Below are positions 238-41,000 of a DNA stretch of 64,000 bases, one piece after another; position 1 is the first letter of the stretch, and every line of letters begins with the position of its first letter. A model generated the notes under the pieces. It had not been told where the DNA came from. It saw nothing but the letters and a program-made list of their open reading frames with translations, and made no database searches. Made by a program: the position numbers and the translations under genes. The stretch is from Eubacteriales bacterium. GTDB lineage: Bacteria; Bacillota; Clostridia; Oscillospirales; QAKW01. Location: positions 9,346-73,345 of the forward strand of contig JAZQJH010000010.1 of assembly GCA_045541555.1 (NCBI GenBank), in the 5' to 3' direction.

Positions 238-2919
238 ATGAAAGAGTATTTGTCGGAAGTGCAAGAGGTCCTCGATTCGCAGAAATCTTCTGCCGAGGGT
301 CTTAGCAGCGCGGAAGCGCAAAAGCGTCTTGCAGAGATCGGCCCCAATAAGCTGGCCGAGGGCAAGAAGGAAAGCCTGATCCACCGTTTCTTTAAGCAGC
401 TGGCTGAGCCTATGACCATCATTTTGATCGTGGCGGCTTTGATCTCTGCTTTCATGGCAGTTTGGGAGAAGGAATTCCCCTCTGATGTTATCATTATTAT
501 GGCGGTGGTGCTGATCAACGCCATCCTGGGCGTTTTTCAGGAGAGCAAGGCTGAGAAGGCTATTGAGGCTCTGCAGGAGATCGCGGCAGCTACCTCTAAG
601 GTCATTCGCGACGGGCACCAGATCACCGTCCGCAGCGAAGAGCTGGTTCCCGGCGATATCATCGTCCTGGAGGCCGGTGACGCCGTTCCGGCGGATGCCC
701 GTATCATCGAATGCGCCAGCATGAAGATCGAGGAAGCGGCGCTGACCGGTGAGTCCGTCCCCGTGACCAAGGAAAGCGAAGCCCTCAAGGCCGGCGCCAA
801 TGGCGACGTAGCGCTGGGCGACCGCAAGAATATGGTCTTTATGGGCAGCACCGTCGTTTACGGACGCGGTAAAGCCGTCGTTGTCGGTACCGGAATGGAA
901 ACCGAGATGGGTAAGATTGCCGACGCTCTGGCGCAGGCAGAGGAGGGCAAGACTCCCCTGCAGATGAAGCTGGCAGGACTCAGCAAGATCTTGACCTATC
1001 TGGTTATCGGTATCTGCGTCATTATCTTTGGTGTTAACCTGGTGCGTGCGCTGATCGGCGGGGATCTCTCTGCCGCCGTCGTACTGGATACCTTTATGAT
1101 CGCGATCTCTCTGGCGGTTGCCGCCATCCCCGAGGGTCTGGCAACGGTGGTTACCATCGTGCTTTCCATCGGCGTGACCAATATGTCTAAGAGAAGCGCC
1201 ATCATCCGGAAACTGACCGCAGTAGAGACATTGGGTTGTACCCAGATCATCTGCTCCGATAAGACCGGTACGCTGACCCAGAATAAGATGACCGTCGTCG
1301 AGCATTACGGCGAGGATGAAACTCTTTTGGCTACCGCTATGTCTCTCTGCTCCGATGCTGAGCTGGATGAGGAAGCCGGCGAAGCCATCGGTGAGCCCAC
1401 CGAGTGTGCGCTGGTTAACTATGCCAATAAGCTGGGTCTTAATAAGAACGTTCAGAAAAACGAGCTGGTTCGCGTGGGCGAAGTGCCCTTCGATTCCGGC
1501 CGTAAGATGATGTCTACCGTTCATAAGGATGCAAGCGGTGGCTTGATCCAGTTCACCAAGGGCGCTCCCGATGAAGTGCTGAAGAGATGCGTGAAAGCGC
1601 TGATCGGCGGTAAGGAAGTGGAGATGACCGAGGAGATCCGCAAGGAGATCCTGACCGCCAATAAGGCGATGGCGGATAAGGCTCTGCGTGTCCTTTCCGT
1701 TGCCCAGAAGAAGCTGGATGAAGAGCCTGCTGCTTATGAACCCGAGACGGTGGAGTGCGAGCTCTGCTTTGTGGGTCTTGTGGGCATGATTGACCCGGTT
1801 CGTCCCGAGGTAAAGCCTGCTATTGATGAGTGCCGCAGCGCCGGCATCCGTGCCGTGATGATCACCGGTGACCATAAGGATACCGCCGTGGCTATCGCGA
1901 TGCAGCTTGGCATCATCGAGAGCCCCGACCAGGCTATCACTGGCGCTGAGCTGGATGAGATCTCTGATGAAGAATTTGAAGCGAAGGTAGAGCAGTATTC
2001 CGTCTACGCGCGCGTGCAGCCGGAGCATAAGACCCGGATCGTCAACGCTTGGCGTAAGAAGGGCAAGGTCACCGCAATGACCGGCGACGGCGTCAACGAC
2101 GCGCCCTCTATCAAGAATGCAGATATCGGCGTTGGTATGGGTATCACCGGTACCGACGTTACTAAGAACGTGGCCGATATGATTCTGGCAGACGATAACT
2201 TTGCCACCATCGTGTCCGCTGCTGCTGAAGGCCGCCGGATCTATGACAATATCCGTAAGGCCATCCAGTTCCTTTTGGCTTCCAACCTCTCCGAGGTTCT
2301 GACTATCTTCTTTGCCACCCTTTTTGGATGGACCATCTTCCAGCCGGTGCATCTCCTTTGGATCAACCTGATCACCGACTGTTTCCCGGCTCTTGCTTTG
2401 GGTATGGAGAAGCCGGAGGCAGACGTTATGAAGCGTTCTCCCCGCGATTCCAGAGAAGGCATCTTTGCCGGCGGCTTGGGATTCGCAGTCGGCTACCAGG
2501 GCTTCCTGGTGACCCTCATTACCCTGGCATCTTACGTCATCGGCCGCTACTGGCTGGCTGAGCTGCATCATGCTGAGGCAATTGCCCAAGGTCTTTATAA
2601 TGCTGCTGATCTGGGTACCAGCATGGCGTTCCTGACCCTCTCTATGGCAGAGATCTTCCATTCCTTCAATATGCGCTCTCTCCACGGTTCCATCTTTACC
2701 ATGAAGAGCCAGAATAAGTGGCTCTGGGGTGCCGGAATTCTCTCCTTCCTGCTGACCACCCTGGTCATCGAGGTGGACTTCCTGGCGAAGGCCTTTAATC
2801 TGGCGCATCTGGATCTGATGGAGTATGGTATTGCAATGGCGCTGGCCATTTGTATCATTCCCATCGTTGAGTTTATCAAGATCTTCTCTCGGATGCACGA
2901 TAAAAAGCGCAGCAAATAA
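238..2919 (+). CDS. P-type (P2) cation-transporting ATPase, Ca2+/Mn2+ family
   Basis: 893 aa. It has the phosphorylation motif ICSDKTGTLTQNKM, the hinge TGDGVNDAPS, TGES in the actuator domain and PEGL in TM4. An RBS ggagg lies upstream. Confidence 0.93.
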   Translation: MKEYLSEVQEVLDSQKSSAEGLSSAEAQKRLAEIGPNKLAEGKKESLIHRFFKQLAEPMTIILIVAALISAFMAVWEKEFPSDVIIIMAVVLINAILGVFQESKAEKAIEALQEIAAATSKVIRDGHQITVRSEELVPGDIIVLEAGDAVPADARIIECASMKIEEAALTGESVPVTKESEALKAGANGDVALGDRKNMVFMGSTVVYGRGKAVVVGTGMETEMGKIADALAQAEEGKTPLQMKLAGLSKILTYLVIGICVIIFGVNLVRALIGGDLSAAVVLDTFMIAISLAVAAIPEGLATVVTIVLSIGVTNMSKRSAIIRKLTAVETLGCTQIICSDKTGTLTQNKMTVVEHYGEDETLLATAMSLCSDAELDEEAGEAIGEPTECALVNYANKLGLNKNVQKNELVRVGEVPFDSGRKMMSTVHKDASGGLIQFTKGAPDEVLKRCVKALIGGKEVEMTEEIRKEILTANKAMADKALRVLSVAQKKLDEEPAAYEPETVECELCFVGLVGMIDPVRPEVKPAIDECRSAGIRAVMITGDHKDTAVAIAMQLGIIESPDQAITGAELDEISDEEFEAKVEQYSVYARVQPEHKTRIVNAWRKKGKVTAMTGDGVNDAPSIKNADIGVGMGITGTDVTKNVADMILADDNFATIVSAAAEGRRIYDNIRKAIQFLLASNLSEVLTIFFATLFGWTIFQPVHLLWINLITDCFPALALGMEKPEADVMKRSPRDSREGIFAGGLGFAVGYQGFLVTLITLASYVIGRYWLAELHHAEAIAQGLYNAADLGTSMAFLTLSMAEIFHSFNMRSLHGSIFTMKSQNKWLWGAGILSFLLTTLVIEVDFLAKAFNLAHLDLMEYGIAMALAICIIPIVEFIKIFSRMHDKKRSK

Positions 2920-2929
2920 TGAAATAATT

Positions 2930-2960
2930 CCCCCTGCTTCGGCAGGGGGATATTTTTTTG
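2930..2960 (+). terminator. Intrinsic terminator after the ATPase
   Basis: Stem ccccctgc (2930-2937), loop ttcg, stem gcaggggg (2942-2949), followed by a T7 tract. Confidence 0.85.
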
Positions 2961-2998
2961 TTCTTTTGCCGATAATAATGTGGAAAAGGGGGCAAAAA

Positions 2999-4432
2999 AT
3001 GGAATTTAAGAATAACTTTGAGGAAAATTTAAAATTATTTCAGGATGCCTTTGATAAAGACGATACCTTTAAGATGAAGTTCATCCGCAATCCGCACCAT
3101 CCGGAGCTTCAGATGGTGGCGTTGCTTTCCGGCGCCATGGTCAGCAGCGACGTCACCGATCGGGACGTGCTTTTAAGTCTGGCATCCTTTGATTTCGAGC
3201 CGACGGTCGAGGGGGCGTTGGCAGGCGGCATCGGCAACCATAGCGTAGAGGTGAGCGACGATCTACAAAAGGCGATGATCCAGATCGGTGCCGGAGATTG
3301 CGTGGTACTGGTGGGAGATGAGCCGCGGTGCATCATTATTGATGCTAAGGGGATGCCCAAGCGCGGCAACGATATTCCCGAGACGGAGATCTCGCTTTTG
3401 GGCCCTCAGGATGGATTTAATGAAAATATCATGGGCAACCTGGGACTTTTGAAAAAGCGGATCGCTACTCCGGATCTGAAATGTGAGTTCGTAACCGCCG
3501 GTAAGCGGTGTAATAATAAATTGGCCATCTGCTATCTGGACGGGGTAGTGCGCCCCGAGCTGGTGGAGGAGGTAAAGGCGCGGATCCAAAAGATCTATAT
3601 TGATTTTGTGCCGGACGGCAATGTCCTTGCGGAGTTGATTCGGGACTGTCCGTATTCGATCTTTAAGACGGTGGGCAAGACCGGCCGTCCGGACGTACTG
3701 GCATCCAAGCTCCTGGAGGGACGGATCGGTGTGATCATGGACGGCTCTCCTGTCGCCATCACCGTCCCTTATATTTTTGCCGAGGCCTTTCAAAGTCCCG
3801 ACGATTATTATCAGAGCTATCTCTACGCCAATATCGGCAGGGTACTGCGGTATCTCGGTTTTTTGATCGCCGTCTTTTTGCCGGGTTTTTATCTTTCGGT
3901 GGTCAATTTTAATCCCGGCGTACTGCCGGCGCATTGGCTTTATACGGTCCTTGCATCTTCGGAGGGGGTGCCCATCCGGACGGTGACGGAGATGCTGCTC
4001 CTCTTTTTTGCCTTTGAAATTCTCCGGGAGACCGGATCCCGAATGCCGGCGGGGCTGGGGCTTGCCTTGAACGTGGTGGGGGCGGTGATCTTGGGGGATG
4101 CGGCGGTGACCAGTAATATTGTCTCCACCCCCATGGTGATCATCGTTGCCTTTTCCGGCGTCACCGGTCTGATGGTCAAGGATCTCAAAGGACCGGTTTT
4201 TTATCTGCGGCTGGGAGCAATCCTTGCCGGCGCAGTGTTTGGCTTACCGGGGCTTGCCTTGATGGCAGTGGCGACGCTGCTGCATTTGGCGTCGTTGAAC
4301 TCTCTGGGGGTGCCCTTTCTCTATACCCTTGGCCATAAAAGCGGTTGTCAGGACACCTTTTTTCGGACGCCTTATTGGCGGATGGTCTGGCGCCAAGAAC
4401 GCTTTACCGCCAATCAAAGGAGGCAAAAATGA
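2999..4432 (+). CDS. Spore germination protein, GerA (A-subunit) family
   Basis: The track ORF 2825..4432 was trimmed to the ATG at 2999 (MEFKNNFEENL), which follows the RBS aaggggg. The upstream extension overlaps the ATPase and its terminator. GerAA-like core: GRIGVIMDGSPVAITVPYIF plus a C-terminal TM bundle. Confidence 0.85.
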   Translation: MEFKNNFEENLKLFQDAFDKDDTFKMKFIRNPHHPELQMVALLSGAMVSSDVTDRDVLLSLASFDFEPTVEGALAGGIGNHSVEVSDDLQKAMIQIGAGDCVVLVGDEPRCIIIDAKGMPKRGNDIPETEISLLGPQDGFNENIMGNLGLLKKRIATPDLKCEFVTAGKRCNNKLAICYLDGVVRPELVEEVKARIQKIYIDFVPDGNVLAELIRDCPYSIFKTVGKTGRPDVLASKLLEGRIGVIMDGSPVAITVPYIFAEAFQSPDDYYQSYLYANIGRVLRYLGFLIAVFLPGFYLSVVNFNPGVLPAHWLYTVLASSEGVPIRTVTEMLLLFFAFEILRETGSRMPAGLGLALNVVGAVILGDAAVTSNIVSTPMVIIVAFSGVTGLMVKDLKGPVFYLRLGAILAGAVFGLPGLALMAVATLLHLASLNSLGVPFLYTLGHKSGCQDTFFRTPYWRMVWRQERFTANQRRQK

Positions 4433-4998: not shown

Positions 4999-5713
4999 TG
5001 CATTACTGCTTTTAGGGGAGACTGCCGCTCTTGGCTGGTTCATTCTGCATGATCTTTCTTTTCTGGCGGTCTTGCCGATCATTCCCTTAGGGGTGTTGTT
5101 CTATTTTCTGCACCGCTTTTCTATGATCAAATGGCTGAATGGGGTGCTCTCTATAATTGCGGCGAGCTTGGCGGCGTTCACCATCAGCGTGGGCGTCTTT
5201 GACGGAAACGGATTTTTTACCCTGCTCTGCCTCATTCCGGCGGTGGCGTTATTGGCACTCAACGTGCCAAAGGCTGAGTTGGAGCGCATTTCCGGCTGGT
5301 GGCTCTTTGCTTTTTTATTGGCTTTTATCGTGATGCTTGTCGCCACCCTACCGGGTGTTCGGTGGACGGCAGAACTGCCGTCGGTCGGCAAATGGATCGA
5401 TCTTTTGATCTTTTATCTTTTGGTATTTTTGGAGCCCTTGGGAATGGGGAAGGACTACCGTGCCGCACCTCTTGCCCTGGGGATCTTACTTCTGCCCTTC
5501 AGCCTTGCCGCCTATCTTGCTTTGGGCGGCGGCGCTTTTGGCTGGGCGGAGTATCCCTATCTTTCGGTGTGGGCTGGGGTGGCGGTATCCGCCTTTCATC
5601 ATACCGAAGGGATCATTCTATGCCTCTATTATGGGGTGGGTGCTTTGCGCCTGGCGAATTTTTTGCAATCTGCCGGGGGACTTTATTGCAAAGCCCAAAA
5701 GTTTTTTATTTAA
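4982..5713 (+). CDS. Polytopic membrane protein in the ger operon (possible reduced GerAB-like subunit)
   Basis: 243 aa with about 7 hydrophobic helices. It overlaps the upstream gene by 17 nt. The function is assigned only from operon position. Confidence 0.45.
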   Translation: MKLFRSALLLLGETAALGWFILHDLSFLAVLPIIPLGVLFYFLHRFSMIKWLNGVLSIIAASLAAFTISVGVFDGNGFFTLLCLIPAVALLALNVPKAELERISGWWLFAFLLAFIVMLVATLPGVRWTAELPSVGKWIDLLIFYLLVFLEPLGMGKDYRAAPLALGILLLPFSLAAYLALGGGAFGWAEYPYLSVWAGVAVSAFHHTEGIILCLYYGVGALRLANFLQSAGGLYCKAQKFFI

Positions 5714-5736
5714 AGTTTAATGAAAAAACGACTGCA

Positions 5737-5780
5737 TAGGGAGACACTTCGTAAAGAAGTGTTCTCCCTACTTTCTTTTT
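5737..5780 (+). terminator. Intrinsic terminator after the ger operon
   Basis: Stem tagggagacacttc / gaagtgttctcccta with one bulge, followed by ctttcttttt. Confidence 0.7.
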
Positions 5781-5866
5781 ATATAAAAATTGACACTTTC
5801 GGTTTGAAAGTGTCATAGTGGGTTACATACTTTAAAATTAACCTATCTCAAAGATAAGAATAATAA

Positions 5867-6069
5867 GTGATATTGTGAGACAGGTCTCACAGTGATATTT
5901 TGCCTTTCGGCAAAGTGATATGAAAACCTATCGGTTTTCGTGATATTATATCCGCCCTTAAAACTGCCCGAAGGGCAATATAACTATGCGTAGCATAATA
6001 TAACTGCGAAGCAATATAACTCGCCTTTGGCGAATATAACTGAGGCACCTTCCTTACGGAGGGTGCCTC
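5867..6069. repeat. Motif/hairpin array: 4x GTGATAT then 4x AATATAACT, each separated by a unique perfect stem-loop
   Basis: GTGATAT starts at 5867, 5892, 5915 and 5940. AATATAACT starts at 5977, 5997, 6013 and 6033. The spacers are tgtgaga-cagg-tctcaca, tttgcc-tttc-ggcaaa, gaaaacc-tatc-ggttttc, gccctt...aagggc, atgc-gta-gcat, gc-gaa-gc and cgcc-ttt-ggcg. A closing 12-bp hairpin lies at 6042-6069. No ORF of at least 60 aa covers the region. Confidence 0.8.
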
Positions 6070-6086
6070 TAGCGGTCGTTTTTTTG
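6042..6086 (+). terminator. Possible terminator closing the repeat array
   Basis: gaggcaccttcc-ttac-ggagggtgcctc forms 12 bp with one G-U pair. The T7 tract (6079-6085) begins 9 nt after the stem, which is farther than is typical. Confidence 0.4.
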
Positions 6087-6111
6087 TTCATAAATCGTTT
6101 AAGAAAAGGTC

Positions 6112-6140
6112 TTGATTATTATAAATATCTTTAGTATAAT
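6112..6140 (+). promoter_or_regulatory. sigma-A-type promoter of lon
   Basis: TTGATT at 6112-6117, a 17-nt spacer, and TATAAT at 6135-6140. The lon ATG lies about 37 nt downstream, preceded by the RBS aggag. Confidence 0.6.
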
Positions 6141-6176
6141 TAGTCTGTATATTTATAACTATCTATAGGAGAAACC

Positions 6177-8591
6177 ATGGCAGAAATCAATATCTTTGAA
6201 AATGAACATACATTGCAGCAGCATCCGCTGATTGCATCCCGCGGCATTGTCGTCATGCCGGGTACCACCATGTCCTTCGACGTGGTGCGGGAATTTTCCA
6301 TCGCCGCAGTCGAAGCGGCAGGGAAGCAGGACGGCATCGTCATCATCGCATCTCAGAAGGACTTTTCGGTGGAGGAGCCCGGTCATCGGGATCTTTGCAG
6401 CGTAGCGACCCTGGCTAAAATTACCCAGGTGGTGCGCGTAGGCGAAGGTGCCATCCGGGTATCGGTGCGCGGTCTTTCCCGTGCGGATCTTTTGAAGGCG
6501 GAAAAGAAGTCCCGAATGTTTGTGGGCATCGTTTATCCCATTTCGGAGATCAAGGCACCGGCGGAAGCCCCCAATCGGGAAGCCTTGCTTCGTACCTTGA
6601 AAGAGACCTTTGGCGGCTATCTGACCCTCTTGCCGAAGATCAATGAGGAGCTTTCTCCGGAGCTTTTCTCGGAGCAGGATCTGGGTCGTTGTGCCGACCG
6701 CATGACCGCCCAATGCTTCTTTGCCCCGGAGCAAAAGCAGACCCTTTTGGAGCAGCTGGATCCGGTCAAGCGTTGTGAAACGCTTCTGGAGATCCTGATG
6801 CGGGAGATCGAAGTGCTGAAGATGGAGCAGGAGATCCACGCCCGTGTGCGGGAGTCCATCGAGGCCAACCAGCGCGATTATTATCTGCACGAGCAGATGC
6901 GCGTCATTCAGGATGAGCTGGGTGAGAATGAAAACGGCGACGATATCGACGGCTATTATGCCAAGATCGACGCCCTCAACGCCACCCCTGAAATTAAAGA
7001 AAAACTCAATAAAGAAGTAGAACGGATGGCTAAGATGCCGCCGATGTCCCATGAGGGTGCGGTGATCCGGAATTATCTGGATCTGGTGCTGGAGGTTCCC
7101 TTCGGCGTCTATACCGAGGAAAATTTGGATATTAAATCCGCCCGCGCGATTTTGGAAAAGGATCACTACGGTCTGGATGAGGTCAAGACCCGGGTGCTGG
7201 AATTTTTGGCGGTTCGTTCCCTCAATGCGGTGGGCGGTCAGATCCTTTGCCTGGTGGGTCCTCCGGGGGTCGGTAAAACCTCCATTGCGCGGAGCATCGC
7301 CGAGGCGACCAACCGCAAGCTGGCGCGGGTCAGCCTGGGCGGTGTCCATGATGAGGCGGAGATCCGTGGCCATCGTAAGACCTATATCGGCGCCATGCCC
7401 GGACGGATCGCGGATGCGGTCATTAAGTCCGGGAGCAGTAATCCCTTGATCCTCTTGGATGAGGTGGATAAAATGTGCTCCGATCTGCGCGGCGATCCTG
7501 CTTCTGCCTTGCTGGAGGTATTGGATAGCGAGCAGAACTGTAACTATGTGGATCATTATTTAGAGGTGCCCCTGGATCTTTCGCAGGCCTTCTTTATGAT
7601 GACCGCCAATACCTTAGATACCATCCCTCGTCCCTTGCTGGATCGTATGGAAGTGATCGAGCTTTCCTCCTATCTGGATGAGGAGAAATTCCATATTGCC
7701 AAGCAATACCTTGTTCCCAAGCAGCGTAAAATGCATGGTCTTAAAGCCAATCAGATCAAGATCAACGATGCGGCGATCCGCGCGCTGATCGATGGCTATA
7801 CTCGGGAGTCCGGCGTCCGTTCCCTGGAGCGGAGCATCGGCAAGATCATGCGTAAGGCCGCACTGCAGATCGTGGAGAACGGCAAAAAGAGTATGTCTGT
7901 CGGCGTCTCTCAATTGGAGTCCCTTTTGGGCGCTAAGAAATATAAGGACGAGCCCCTTTATGAAGAGGGCTGCTGCGGCATCGTCAACGGTCTCGCCTGG
8001 ACGGCGGTGGGCGGCGAGATGCTGACGGTGGAGGTCTCCGTCCTGGAGGGTAGCGGTAAGCTGGAGCTGACCGGTAGCTTGGGCGACGTCATGAAGGAAA
8101 GCGCCCGTACGGCGGTCTCTTACCTCCGCAGCGTGGTGGATCGGATGAACGTCAGCTATGATTTCTATAAGACCAAGGATCTGCATATCCACTTCCCGGA
8201 GGGTGCTGTCCCCAAGGATGGTCCCAGTGCCGGTATCACCATCGCGACAGCGGTCTGCTCTGCCTTGACGGAGCATCCTGCCGGCAATAAGATCGCCATG
8301 ACCGGCGAGATCACCCTGACCGGCCGTGTTCTGCCCATCGGCGGCCTGCGCGAGAAGTCCATGGCGGCTTATAAGCACGGCATTACCACCGTCTATATCC
8401 CGAAGGATAACGTCCCGGATCTGGAAAAGGTGGATGCCGCGGTGCGCGAAAAGATTAAGTTTATCCCCGTCGGTCATGCGGATGAAGTCCTGCGTGACGT
8501 ACTGGGGATCGCAGATAAAAAGAGAAAGACCTTTGTTTGCCCGCCCCATAAGGCCGGCAAAAAGGAGTCGGGTACAGAAGCATGGGTTTAA
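6177..8591 (+). CDS. lon: ATP-dependent Lon protease (LonA)
   Basis: 804 aa. It has an N-terminal LON domain, the Walker A motif GPPGVGKTS, and the catalytic-serine motif PKDGPSAGIT. Confidence 0.97.
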   Translation: MAEINIFENEHTLQQHPLIASRGIVVMPGTTMSFDVVREFSIAAVEAAGKQDGIVIIASQKDFSVEEPGHRDLCSVATLAKITQVVRVGEGAIRVSVRGLSRADLLKAEKKSRMFVGIVYPISEIKAPAEAPNREALLRTLKETFGGYLTLLPKINEELSPELFSEQDLGRCADRMTAQCFFAPEQKQTLLEQLDPVKRCETLLEILMREIEVLKMEQEIHARVRESIEANQRDYYLHEQMRVIQDELGENENGDDIDGYYAKIDALNATPEIKEKLNKEVERMAKMPPMSHEGAVIRNYLDLVLEVPFGVYTEENLDIKSARAILEKDHYGLDEVKTRVLEFLAVRSLNAVGGQILCLVGPPGVGKTSIARSIAEATNRKLARVSLGGVHDEAEIRGHRKTYIGAMPGRIADAVIKSGSSNPLILLDEVDKMCSDLRGDPASALLEVLDSEQNCNYVDHYLEVPLDLSQAFFMMTANTLDTIPRPLLDRMEVIELSSYLDEEKFHIAKQYLVPKQRKMHGLKANQIKINDAAIRALIDGYTRESGVRSLERSIGKIMRKAALQIVENGKKSMSVGVSQLESLLGAKKYKDEPLYEEGCCGIVNGLAWTAVGGEMLTVEVSVLEGSGKLELTGSLGDVMKESARTAVSYLRSVVDRMNVSYDFYKTKDLHIHFPEGAVPKDGPSAGITIATAVCSALTEHPAGNKIAMTGEITLTGRVLPIGGLREKSMAAYKHGITTVYIPKDNVPDLEKVDAAVREKIKFIPVGHADEVLRDVLGIADKKRKTFVCPPHKAGKKESGTEAWV

Positions 8592-40847: not shown

Positions 40848-40854
40848 TGTTGAG

Positions 40855-41000
40855 TCAAAAAAATATGCTTCGCAGACAGCAGGTGCCGGTTTTTGGCTTA
40901 ATATCCCGCCGAGGAGTGCTTTTGAATATCTTAGGATATCTATGCTCCCAAGCGTGTCTGCGCTCTGGGAGCATTATTTTTTGAAAATCTAATGGAGGTA
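40855..41000 (+). promoter_or_regulatory. Ribosomal protein L10 leader (autoregulatory attenuator)
   Basis: A structured 5' UTR of about 150 nt lies in the expected position. Its terminal hairpin atgctccca...tgggagcat (40942-40974) is followed by tatttttt. Assigned from position and architecture only, with no covariance-model scan. Confidence 0.55.

Follow-up and report, generated by a model that had tools for sequence, protein, structure and literature searches.

In 2010 Weinberg et al. described Gut-1, a small RNA (sRNA) candidate found only in human-gut metagenomes and left without an assigned function (Weinberg et al., 2010; PMC2864571). The motif consists of four GUGAAAU-like heptamers and three co-varying hairpins, and it was tied to no single downstream gene (PMC2864571). 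As curated in Rfam (RF01706), Gut-1 is graded as certainly RNA from covariation. The present article concerns a non-coding block of about 300 bp, taken as about positions 5783–6078 of a 64,000-nucleotide stretch of DNA from an Eubacteriales bacterium (GenBank assembly GCA_045541555.1, contig JAZQJH010000010.1). This whole 64-kb stretch is referred to as the window. Judged by its layout and its Rfam scores, the block is an extended, two-armed form of the known but unexplained Gut-1 motif.

Several described systems resemble parts of this element. Open reading frames (ORFs) for S23p ride in selfish intervening sequences (IVS) of 23S rRNA, for example in Coxiella, which have a continuous 28-bp stem (PMC4990558). 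Avd, which resembles the S23 proteins, forms a pentameric barrel that is positively charged and binds RNA (PMC10053308). In diversity-generating retroelements (DGRs) a hairpin or cruciform lies beside avd; it has a variable GC-rich stem and a sense-strand 5′-GRNA loop, and a swap to CTTT abolishes its function (PMC3240598). At the level of DNA, c-GNA-g and c-GNNA-g form the consensus of "mini-hairpin DNA", which is far more stable as DNA than as RNA, and such signals, GCGNAGC and GCGNNAGC, are found at the G4, ssiA and N4 sites (PMC13037366). The stability given by these loops and closing pairs is likewise treated in PMC3201870.

Two Inverted Gut-1 Arms in One Block

The original prediction, made from the letters alone, could match the block to no known non-coding RNA family. 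That statement was not borne out. In a permissive Rfam scan (601-base search) both half-arrays match Gut-1 on opposite strands, arm B on the minus strand at 5973–6042 (46.8 bits, E = 4e-8) and arm A on the plus strand at 5865–5951 (39.6 bits, E = 3e-6). The curated gathering score is 50 bits; both arms score below it, and a search of the whole window at that threshold gives no Gut-1 match. Other RNA families gave weak chance matches only in the permissive scan. Since the two matches fall on opposite strands, the arms are inverted copies of one unit type, each with four heptamers and three hairpins, the heptamer variants being GUUAUAU and GUGAUAU instead of the GUGAAAU type. Two-armed relatives exceed the Rfam cut-off, with 54–80 bits, always in the tRNA-proximal arm and in the sense of the tRNA, and the flanks of the Gut-1 seed alignment show a second arm in several members, e.g., BAAZ01000095 and BAAZ01025322. 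Gut-1 as described is one arm only, without the second arm, the long-range helix, the tRNA link or the protein partner discussed below. The window copy is like it in the layout of heptamers and hairpins and in the gut-bacterial origin of its relatives, and differs in its heptamers and its sub-cut-off scores.

The motif counts of the original prediction stand. GTGATAT occurs four times on the plus strand, starting at 5867, 5892, 5915 and 5940, and AATATAACT four times, starting at 5977, 5997, 6013 and 6033. By itself GTGATAT is unremarkable in the window (9 matches versus 6.8 expected); the non-random feature is the arrangement of its copies, not their number. AATATAACT has no other copy in the 64 kb, where 0.32 are expected, and at least four copies were reached in 0 of 100 shuffles. 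When the block was folded, both strands were far better than shuffled sequence (z = −7.5 for the plus and −8.9 for the minus strand).

Along the plus strand the element begins with a 10-bp outer hairpin (5791–5815) at the far side of the second arm, which is kept in L039, a close relative of the window copy. Read on the minus strand, this hairpin resembles a terminator, with AUUUUUAUAU behind it; on the plus strand it overlaps a promoter-like sequence, TTGACA-18-CATAGT (5790–5819). An AT-rich leader or trailer of 50 nt (5816–5865) leads to the first heptamer, and its last 27 nt or so are kept both in L039 and in another element on a 4-kb IMG/VR contig (L165). Arm A (5866–5947, plus strand), the second arm in Gut-1 orientation, holds the four GTGATAT copies with hairpins at 5875–5890, 5899–5914 and 5922–5939. 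The linker that follows it (5945–5956) contains an incomplete fifth heptamer and duplicates a hairpin arm. The central hairpin, tgccc-GAA-gggca (5965–5977), abuts the first heptamer of arm B and has a counterpart at the same position in all relatives. Arm B (5977–6041) is Gut-1 proper, reading as four GUUAUAU copies on the minus strand and as the four AATATAACT copies on the plus strand; its hairpins, at 5985–5997, 6005–6013 and 6021–6033, have the plus-strand loops GTA, GAA and TTT. The six hairpins within the arms are perfect palindromes and all different, as had been claimed. Of the remaining spacer, proposed as gccctt/aagggc, the pairing would have an 11-nt loop, and the central hairpin given above is the better structure.

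A GC-rich 12-bp end hairpin (6042–6069), an inverted repeat with one U·G pair, closes the element. Both this hairpin and the opening one were correctly recognized. The T7 tract said to follow it (6079–6085) is present and begins 9 nt past the stem, so that the hairpin is not a canonical terminator, in which the U tract comes directly after the stem; a terminator scan makes no call on 6042–6069. Its position is that of the tRNA or rRNA operon terminator hairpin in relatives, and in about two-thirds of these the equivalent hairpin is a standard A/U-flanked terminator. The window and L039 diverge right after it.

Conserved Heptamers, Free Stems and Two Competing Helices

The claim that fixed motifs and freely changing stems reflect selection is upheld by comparison of about 70 related loci, in which the heptamers are constant while the stems co-vary. 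The mini-hairpin stems have unrelated sequences and contain 710 Watson–Crick pairs, 4 G·U, 11 A·C and 31 other pairs. The heptamers of related loci do not drift as freely as the stems.

A 12-bp long-range helix, here called P-long, pairs 5945–5956 with 6029–6040 in the window. The second strand comprises the 3′ arm of hairpin 6021–6033 and most of the last heptamer, and can pair either locally, in that hairpin, or with the linker. Among 31 sequences 95.2% of the P-long cells are paired, with double changes at 7 of the 12 pairs; these values were reached in 0 of 500 shuffles, and controls in which the strands were slid were 35–47% paired. Two pairs in the window copy are not Watson–Crick; they are G·U on the minus strand and read A·C and C·A on the plus strand. 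The competing local hairpin, which is the first hairpin in Gut-1 sense and uses the same 5-nt arm, is 99.4% paired with double changes at 5 of its 5 pairs, again reached in 0 of 500 shuffles. Because both P-long and the local hairpin show compensatory changes, two mutually exclusive pairings are conserved. P-long can close the first arm at the cost of that arm's first hairpin, a conserved structural toggle of the two-armed element that is newly described here. Site-specific inversion between the P-long repeats was considered and rejected, as no array was found with the segment in the opposite orientation.

Distribution and Forms of the Family

The family was sampled by a pattern scan with one genome per species, and the 120 genome loci discussed here are the matches listed. 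Hairpin-spaced true arrays make up 67 of these 120. Their carriers among the matches listed are nearly all gut Clostridia (Oscillospiraceae, Acutalibacteraceae, Ruminococcaceae, Christensenellaceae and Lachnospiraceae), together with a few Akkermansia. Copy number is low, with one element in the 64-kb window and one to three loci per assembly among the matches listed. A phage origin was rejected, since true arrays account for 3 of the 120 IMG/VR pattern matches listed versus 67 of the 120 genome matches listed.

There are two forms. In the single-array form, the classical Gut-1, four heptamers and a degenerate fifth are followed by a terminator. In the two-armed form the arms are always convergent (++++−−−−). 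Read in Gut-1 sense, which is the minus strand of the window, it begins with the end hairpin and an always-deviant heptamer 1 (GUUAUAU, ACGAAAU or AUGAAAU), continues with three hairpin-separated heptamers and a half heptamer, GUKARGG, then with a segment of 10–12 nt complementary to heptamer 1 and the 5′ arm of the first hairpin, and ends with four complementary heptamers between which the hairpins are longer. Three heptamer types occur, GUGAUAU/AUAUCAC, GUGAAAU/AUUUCAC and AUGAAAU/AUUUCAU, and the type switches in all eight copies at once, even between the orthologous loci L054 and L071.

Some loci depart from these forms. At 972–1048 of L033, 46 nt past the stop codon of a four-helix-bundle gene, there are six GTGAAAT heptamers separated by a constant, non-palindromic 7-nt spacer, gagcaat; with such a spacer this heptamer stands without clamp hairpins. 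L113 (4186–5243) has a pair of two-armed copies, almost the same in sequence and separated by about 700 bp; ahead of the second stand copies of the terminator and the CCAG tRNA end, and behind it a tRNA-like 3′ fragment. An A-type two-armed element beside a tRNA gene was found at 1580–1790 of L002, a contig labelled Bacteroidaceae, and reflects either horizontal spread or a binning error.

Genomic Context

A tRNA gene and an A/U-flanked terminator hairpin lie directly upstream of 12 of the 30 two-armed genome elements among the matches listed. The anticodons vary and the relative orientation is always the same. Among loci collected by their protein gene, the order tRNA, terminator, array, gene was seen in 22 of 30. 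At L105 (2046–2853) a two-armed element stands at the end of an rrn operon, after 23S, 5S, tRNA-Lys, tRNA-Glu and tRNA-Asn.

The window copy has a different setting. As had been stated, a GerA-type operon lies upstream, and lon, then engB, downstream. The lon homologues define a clade of uncultured Clostridia, and in seven related loci, with Lon 82–94% identical, the order is gerA, gerAC, a 244-aa gene, sometimes ThuA, lon and engB. At all seven the gap before lon measures just 102–150 bp and lacks the array; its contents are a terminator, a T tract and the promoter of lon. The window T tract at 6079 corresponds in the alignment to the one directly after the terminator in these block-free relatives. 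The expected conserved placement upstream of lon is thereby refuted. Since the block-free relatives keep the gene order and the aligned T tract, the block is an insert in this lineage and not a regulator of lon, and a conserved lon leader was ruled out on the same grounds.

Outside the element, the ger-type operon ends in a terminator on the plus strand (5737–5782), an interrupted hairpin of inverted repeats with the U-rich tail CTTTCTTTTTAT; the hairpin has an orthologue in L039. On the other side is the ancestral flank (6079–6140, plus strand), which comprises the T tract and the lon promoter, TTGATT-17-TATAAT (6112–6140). The lon promoter region contains a 15-nt inverted repeat (6114–6128 with 6149–6163) and an imperfect direct repeat of about 31 nt (6109–6139 and 6143–6173), which could be an operator; the region as such is conserved in relatives without the element. 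In 5 of the 7 relatives (L121, L123, L125, L127 and L128) the 244-aa ger-operon gene is separated from lon by a gene of the ThuA family. The window has the hairpin-repeat block at the ThuA position (compared over 5713–6177), and L122 and L124 have neither. Elsewhere in the window, the sole above-threshold Rfam match is a ribosomal protein L10 leader (RF00557, 55.8 bits) at 40852–40987 on the plus strand.

An Avd/S23p-Like Protein Linked to the Arrays

PF05635, the 23S rRNA intervening-sequence protein, is the commonest Pfam family among 107 ORFs flanking the arrays. A representative four-helix-bundle protein of 115 aa matches both PF05635 and TIGR02436 ("four helix bundle protein"), and PDB entry 2rld, with five chains, at E = 1e-21. 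A tblastn search of about 2 Mb with this protein found the gene at 11 loci, all of them beside an array and one of them in Akkermansia. In the reciprocal test, metagenome loci encoding relatives of the query protein were fetched and scanned for arrays. An array lay upstream of the gene at 19 of 21 loci with a protein identity of at least 60%, at 13 of 18 loci with 50–60% (plus three more by eye) and at 0 of 34 loci below 50%, giving 32 of 39 at an identity of at least 50%. The distance from array to start codon is mostly 12–75 nt, with 134 and 198 nt at two loci, and the protein clade tracks the heptamer type.

This Avd/S23p-like subfamily is, on its genetic linkage, the first candidate partner of the Gut-1 motif. 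The suggestion in the original prediction that the motifs might be displayed to a binding protein gains support to the extent that a family of nucleic-acid-binding pentamers is linked to the arrays. No reverse transcriptase was seen within 3.5 kb among the neighbours, template and variable repeat (TR/VR) pairs not having been searched separately. Neither the top 25 families of the 107 neighbour ORFs nor ten ORFs scanned singly included a reverse transcriptase, integrase, Y1/HUH nuclease or TnpB, and with no such domain among them the idea of a DGR, retron or transposon cargo was rejected.

The Akkermansia metagenome-assembled genome locus L005 (6171–7100) carries a four-helix-bundle gene 52% identical to that of Clostridia. 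Downstream of this gene come three modules in tandem, about 240 bp in length, and both heptamer orientations are present in every one; three further Gut-1 matches lie at 2312–3306. In L288 (1285–1500 and 1860–1960), and likewise in L289, the second arm and the four-helix-bundle gene are flanked together by a direct repeat, about 95 bp long. The repeat comprises the 3′ half of the tRNA terminator hairpin and then the first arm as far as the loop of that arm's fourth hairpin, and both of its junctions are inside hairpin loops. From its position it looks like a recombination or integration scar.

Comparison With Described Systems

Like the 23S IVS, the present family joins a PF05635-family gene to a small, sporadic, horizontally spread element with inverted-repeat termini in the setting of a stable-RNA operon. 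The IVS sits in helix 25 or 45 of 23S, whereas relatives of the window copy sit after tRNA, 5S or rRNA operons and the window copy itself lies between protein-coding genes. The IVS carries the PF05635 ORF, which the window copy lacks; in the gene-bearing elements the protein gene is outside the inverted arms, and the arms are interrupted heptamer–hairpin arrays.

The hairpin of DGRs is similar in its Avd-family neighbour, its free but pairing GC-rich stem, its G··A loop on the sense strand and its terminator-like position. A gene preceded by a G··A hairpin is seen in the gene-bearing relatives, and the window has the hairpins and not the gene. The DGR hairpin is single, whereas Gut-1-type elements have seven to eight with shorter stems and a conserved heptamer between them; neither a reverse transcriptase (sought within 3.5 kb) nor template and variable repeats (not searched separately) were seen. 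Mini-hairpin DNA obeys the same rule of loop and closing pair, and GCGAAGC itself stands at 6006–6012 of the window. The known examples are single priming or promoter signals on the single-stranded DNA of phages and plasmids, among which no array or heptamer is known.

CsrB and RsmZ, which act as sponges, and the trp leader bound by TRAP are RNAs with many binding sites for a protein. The arrays share with them closely repeated identical single-stranded motifs, hairpin spacers and an oligomeric protein; they differ in the motif (neither GGA nor GAG/UAG), in the complementary second arm and in the fold family of the putative partner, whose binding is proposed here. REP and BIME (repetitive extragenic palindromes and bacterial interspersed mosaic elements) are extragenic palindromes that recur many times in a genome and conserve the sequence of the palindrome. 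They resemble the arrays as operon-end intergenic palindromic units in inverted pairs, whereas here the copy number is low, every palindrome is different and the linker is conserved; no RAYT-type gene was seen among the families of the 107 neighbour ORFs. A CRISPR array was rejected on its repeats of 7–9 nt (versus 23–50 bp), its palindromic spacers of 7–18 nt and the lack of cas genes among the neighbours. Mini-ORFs from the GUG of each heptamer were rejected as well, the spacings not being multiples of three, as was pairing of the heptamer to the 16S 3′ end or tRNA loops, for which inspection gave matches of at most 5 nt and a heptamer that varies.

A Proposed Display Platform, as RNA or as DNA

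The explanation that we tentatively prefer, with a confidence somewhat short of even, is that the block is an orphan copy of a small accessory module, probably selfish, whose heptamers are displayed as a multivalent platform for an Avd-like protein. The module has two inverted arms. In each of them a single heptamer, GUKAWAU on that arm's own strand, is present four times between clamp hairpins that are short, very stable and free in sequence. The module usually comes immediately behind the terminator hairpin that ends a tRNA or rRNA operon, with a 115-aa four-helix-bundle gene of the S23p/Avd family directly downstream, and the heptamers would be presented, single-stranded or extruded, to the pentameric nucleic-acid-binding protein. 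Because the window has neither a four-helix-bundle gene nor a tRNA, and few loci have the gene adjacent, the protein is assumed to act on the window copy in trans, from elsewhere in the genome. The active form here would most likely be RNA from the minus strand, ending at the terminator-like hairpin 5815–5791 followed by AUUUUUAUAU. The minus strand is favoured because it corresponds to the direction of Gut-1, of the tRNA and of the protein gene in relatives. Single arrays do have sense-strand terminators behind them, as do several two-armed elements. The start codon of the next gene in L288 and L289 comes just 16 nt after the last heptamer, and this arm must therefore either be transcribed or hold the promoter. 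A version of the same display mechanism with DNA hairpins is nearly as likely.

The hairpin loops are strand-polar. On the GTKAWAT strand they are TNC or TNNC, the closing pair being C-G in 172 of 214 hairpins, and on the opposite strand c-GNA-g or c-GNNA-g, with triloops in 113 of 214; such a rule suits mini-hairpins of DNA better than RNA. This polarity is mirrored between the arms, so that no single transcript has stable loops in both, and in the presumed RNA it is the first arm that bears the less stable UNC loops. A single RNA would present GUKAWAU in one arm and the complementary heptamer in its second arm, and one RNA-binding protein cannot read both. Further points also weigh against the platform. 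The stem wobble pairs (4 G·U versus 11 A·C) are scarce and show no strand bias, and no consistent promoter was found for the arrays, those upstream of arm A being weak and variable in position. At A-type loci a strong terminator stands on one side of the array and the promoter of the protein gene itself on the other, with the array filling the space between. The strand clues within the window conflict, the G·U pairs of P-long pointing to the minus strand and the U·G pair of the end hairpin together with the promoter-like site 5790–5819 to the plus strand. The gene is adjacent at just 11 of the 67 genome loci among the matches listed, and in the 64-kb window tblastn finds neither a four-helix-bundle gene nor a PF05635 ORF, and there is no tRNA gene. 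The strong promoter candidates on the other strand belong to the tRNA genes. Wobble in P-long is uninformative, G·U at pair 1 (15 sequences) being offset by C·A at pair 2 (13). A pair of divergent promoters at the centre of the element (TGaTATTAT, with TATAAT on the opposite strand) fits the U type only, not the A type, and was rejected as a general feature.

A rival explanation is an element that works at the level of DNA, its mini-hairpins being extruded, or formed on single-stranded DNA, as a recognition or landing site for Avd-linked machinery instead of an sRNA. The hairpin or cruciform marking DGR target sites and the terminator stems targeted by group IIC introns would be its analogues. 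This alternative is a serious one, if on balance doubtful. It is favoured by stems that are essentially Watson–Crick only and strand-symmetric, by loops that obey the mini-hairpin DNA rule (many of the tetraloops are not GNRA, and the closing pair is strictly C-G), and by the mirrored polarity of the loops. The G··A loops lie on the sense strand of the adjoining protein gene, a layout as in DGRs (PMC3240598). The element is present in some and absent from other close relatives, just past terminators, A-type arrays fill the terminator-to-promoter gap with no promoter of their own, and the direct repeat of L288 and L289 has its ends in hairpin loops. Against it, no reverse transcriptase, integrase or HUH nuclease gene was found within 3.5 kb, stems of 4–8 bp are short for cruciform extrusion, and the sense-strand terminators after single-armed arrays are what transcripts would have. 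Rfam's rating as certainly RNA also counts against it, yet covariation cannot tell RNA from DNA. In a more specific version, which we consider unlikely, the Gut-1 arrays would be DNA mini-hairpins able to extrude, together with the invariant heptamer, and would serve a very small selfish element as its ends or landing pads. This element would home to sites just downstream of the terminators of tRNA and rRNA operons and depend on an Avd/S23p-like pentamer. It would be a cousin of DGR target recognition and of the 23S IVS, either lacking a reverse transcriptase or served in trans, and the window copy would be a solo homing footprint.

The original prediction had offered, besides display, a ladder in which the heptamers of arms A and B pair in nested order to give stacked four-way junctions. 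Such a rod might serve as a scaffold or as a double-stranded stalk for processing, for instance by RNase III, in the manner of the stems of the 23S IVS. The pairing of aGUGAUAU with the second motif at 7 of 8 positions, with one G·A mismatch, is correct in all four rungs; the arms are complementary at the level of the heptamer in all three types, the inner rungs are 92–96% Watson–Crick, the window junctions have no unpaired bases, and S23p-type genes elsewhere ride in elements with an RNase III stem made of terminal inverted repeats (PMC4990558). Arm-to-arm pairing, however, is no more than one heptamer present in both orientations would give. No covariation specific to the partner is seen; of the 5 elements where the choice of partner matters, 1 has the nested order as its best, and the deviations of the first arm (GUU, GUUCUAU, ACG) are never compensated. 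From inner to outer the rungs are 96, 94, 92 and 82% Watson–Crick, the outer ones often being mismatched, and all four in the window contain a G·A (plus strand) or U·C (minus strand). P-long, which is much better supported, excludes the outer rung, and single-armed Gut-1 arrays exist that have no partner arm at all. In the window the ladder gains just 3.7 kcal/mol over unpaired beads and falls 17.6 kcal/mol short of the minimum-free-energy fold; the ladder, beads and P-long are within less than 4 kcal/mol of each other and all far above that fold, so the energies are not decisive. The ladder is not supported, and we regard it as improbable. Template switching yields perfect quasi-palindromes without G·U intermediates, and the perfect stems would suit a functionless selfish or mutational by-product, maintained by template-switch correction and harmless in terminator-proximal gaps, as would the sporadic distribution and a window copy without its partner gene. 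Invariant heptamers whose eight copies switch type together, a 4+4 architecture fixed across phyla and two conserved competing helices make this explanation highly improbable. Slightly less credit still is due to a fail-safe two-way transcription barrier, in which the small hairpins of each arm would meet oncoming polymerase beyond a primary terminator and insulate the neighbouring genes, here lon and the ger operon, from read-through out of strongly transcribed tRNA or rRNA operons. The elements are always just past a terminator hairpin and co-directional with the upstream operon, the arms converge, and a simple terminator scan flags several units in the window. The heptamers, however, contain little U and keep an invariant GUGA for which a terminator has no use, most relatives lack the element at the same locus, and the three coordinated heptamer types, P-long and the tie to a single protein subfamily would be left unexplained.

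What the Element Means for Gut-1

Since 2010 Gut-1 has stood in Rfam as an orphan motif of the human gut only, without organism, partner or function. It can now be placed in named gut lineages, and the motif as described proves to be half of a larger two-armed element that is tied to the 3′ ends of tRNA and rRNA operons. The element is linked to one Avd/S23p-like subfamily, in a family whose members outside DGRs are without a known role. The loops, strand-polar and following the rule for DNA, point to the possibility that a curated "RNA" family is a DNA-structure element. The block is a real element under selection, and what follows for the window is modest in practice: it is an accessory insert rather than a conserved regulator of lon. 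Display of the heptamers is strengthened as a hypothesis and now has a testable partner, so that the motif has become approachable by experiment.

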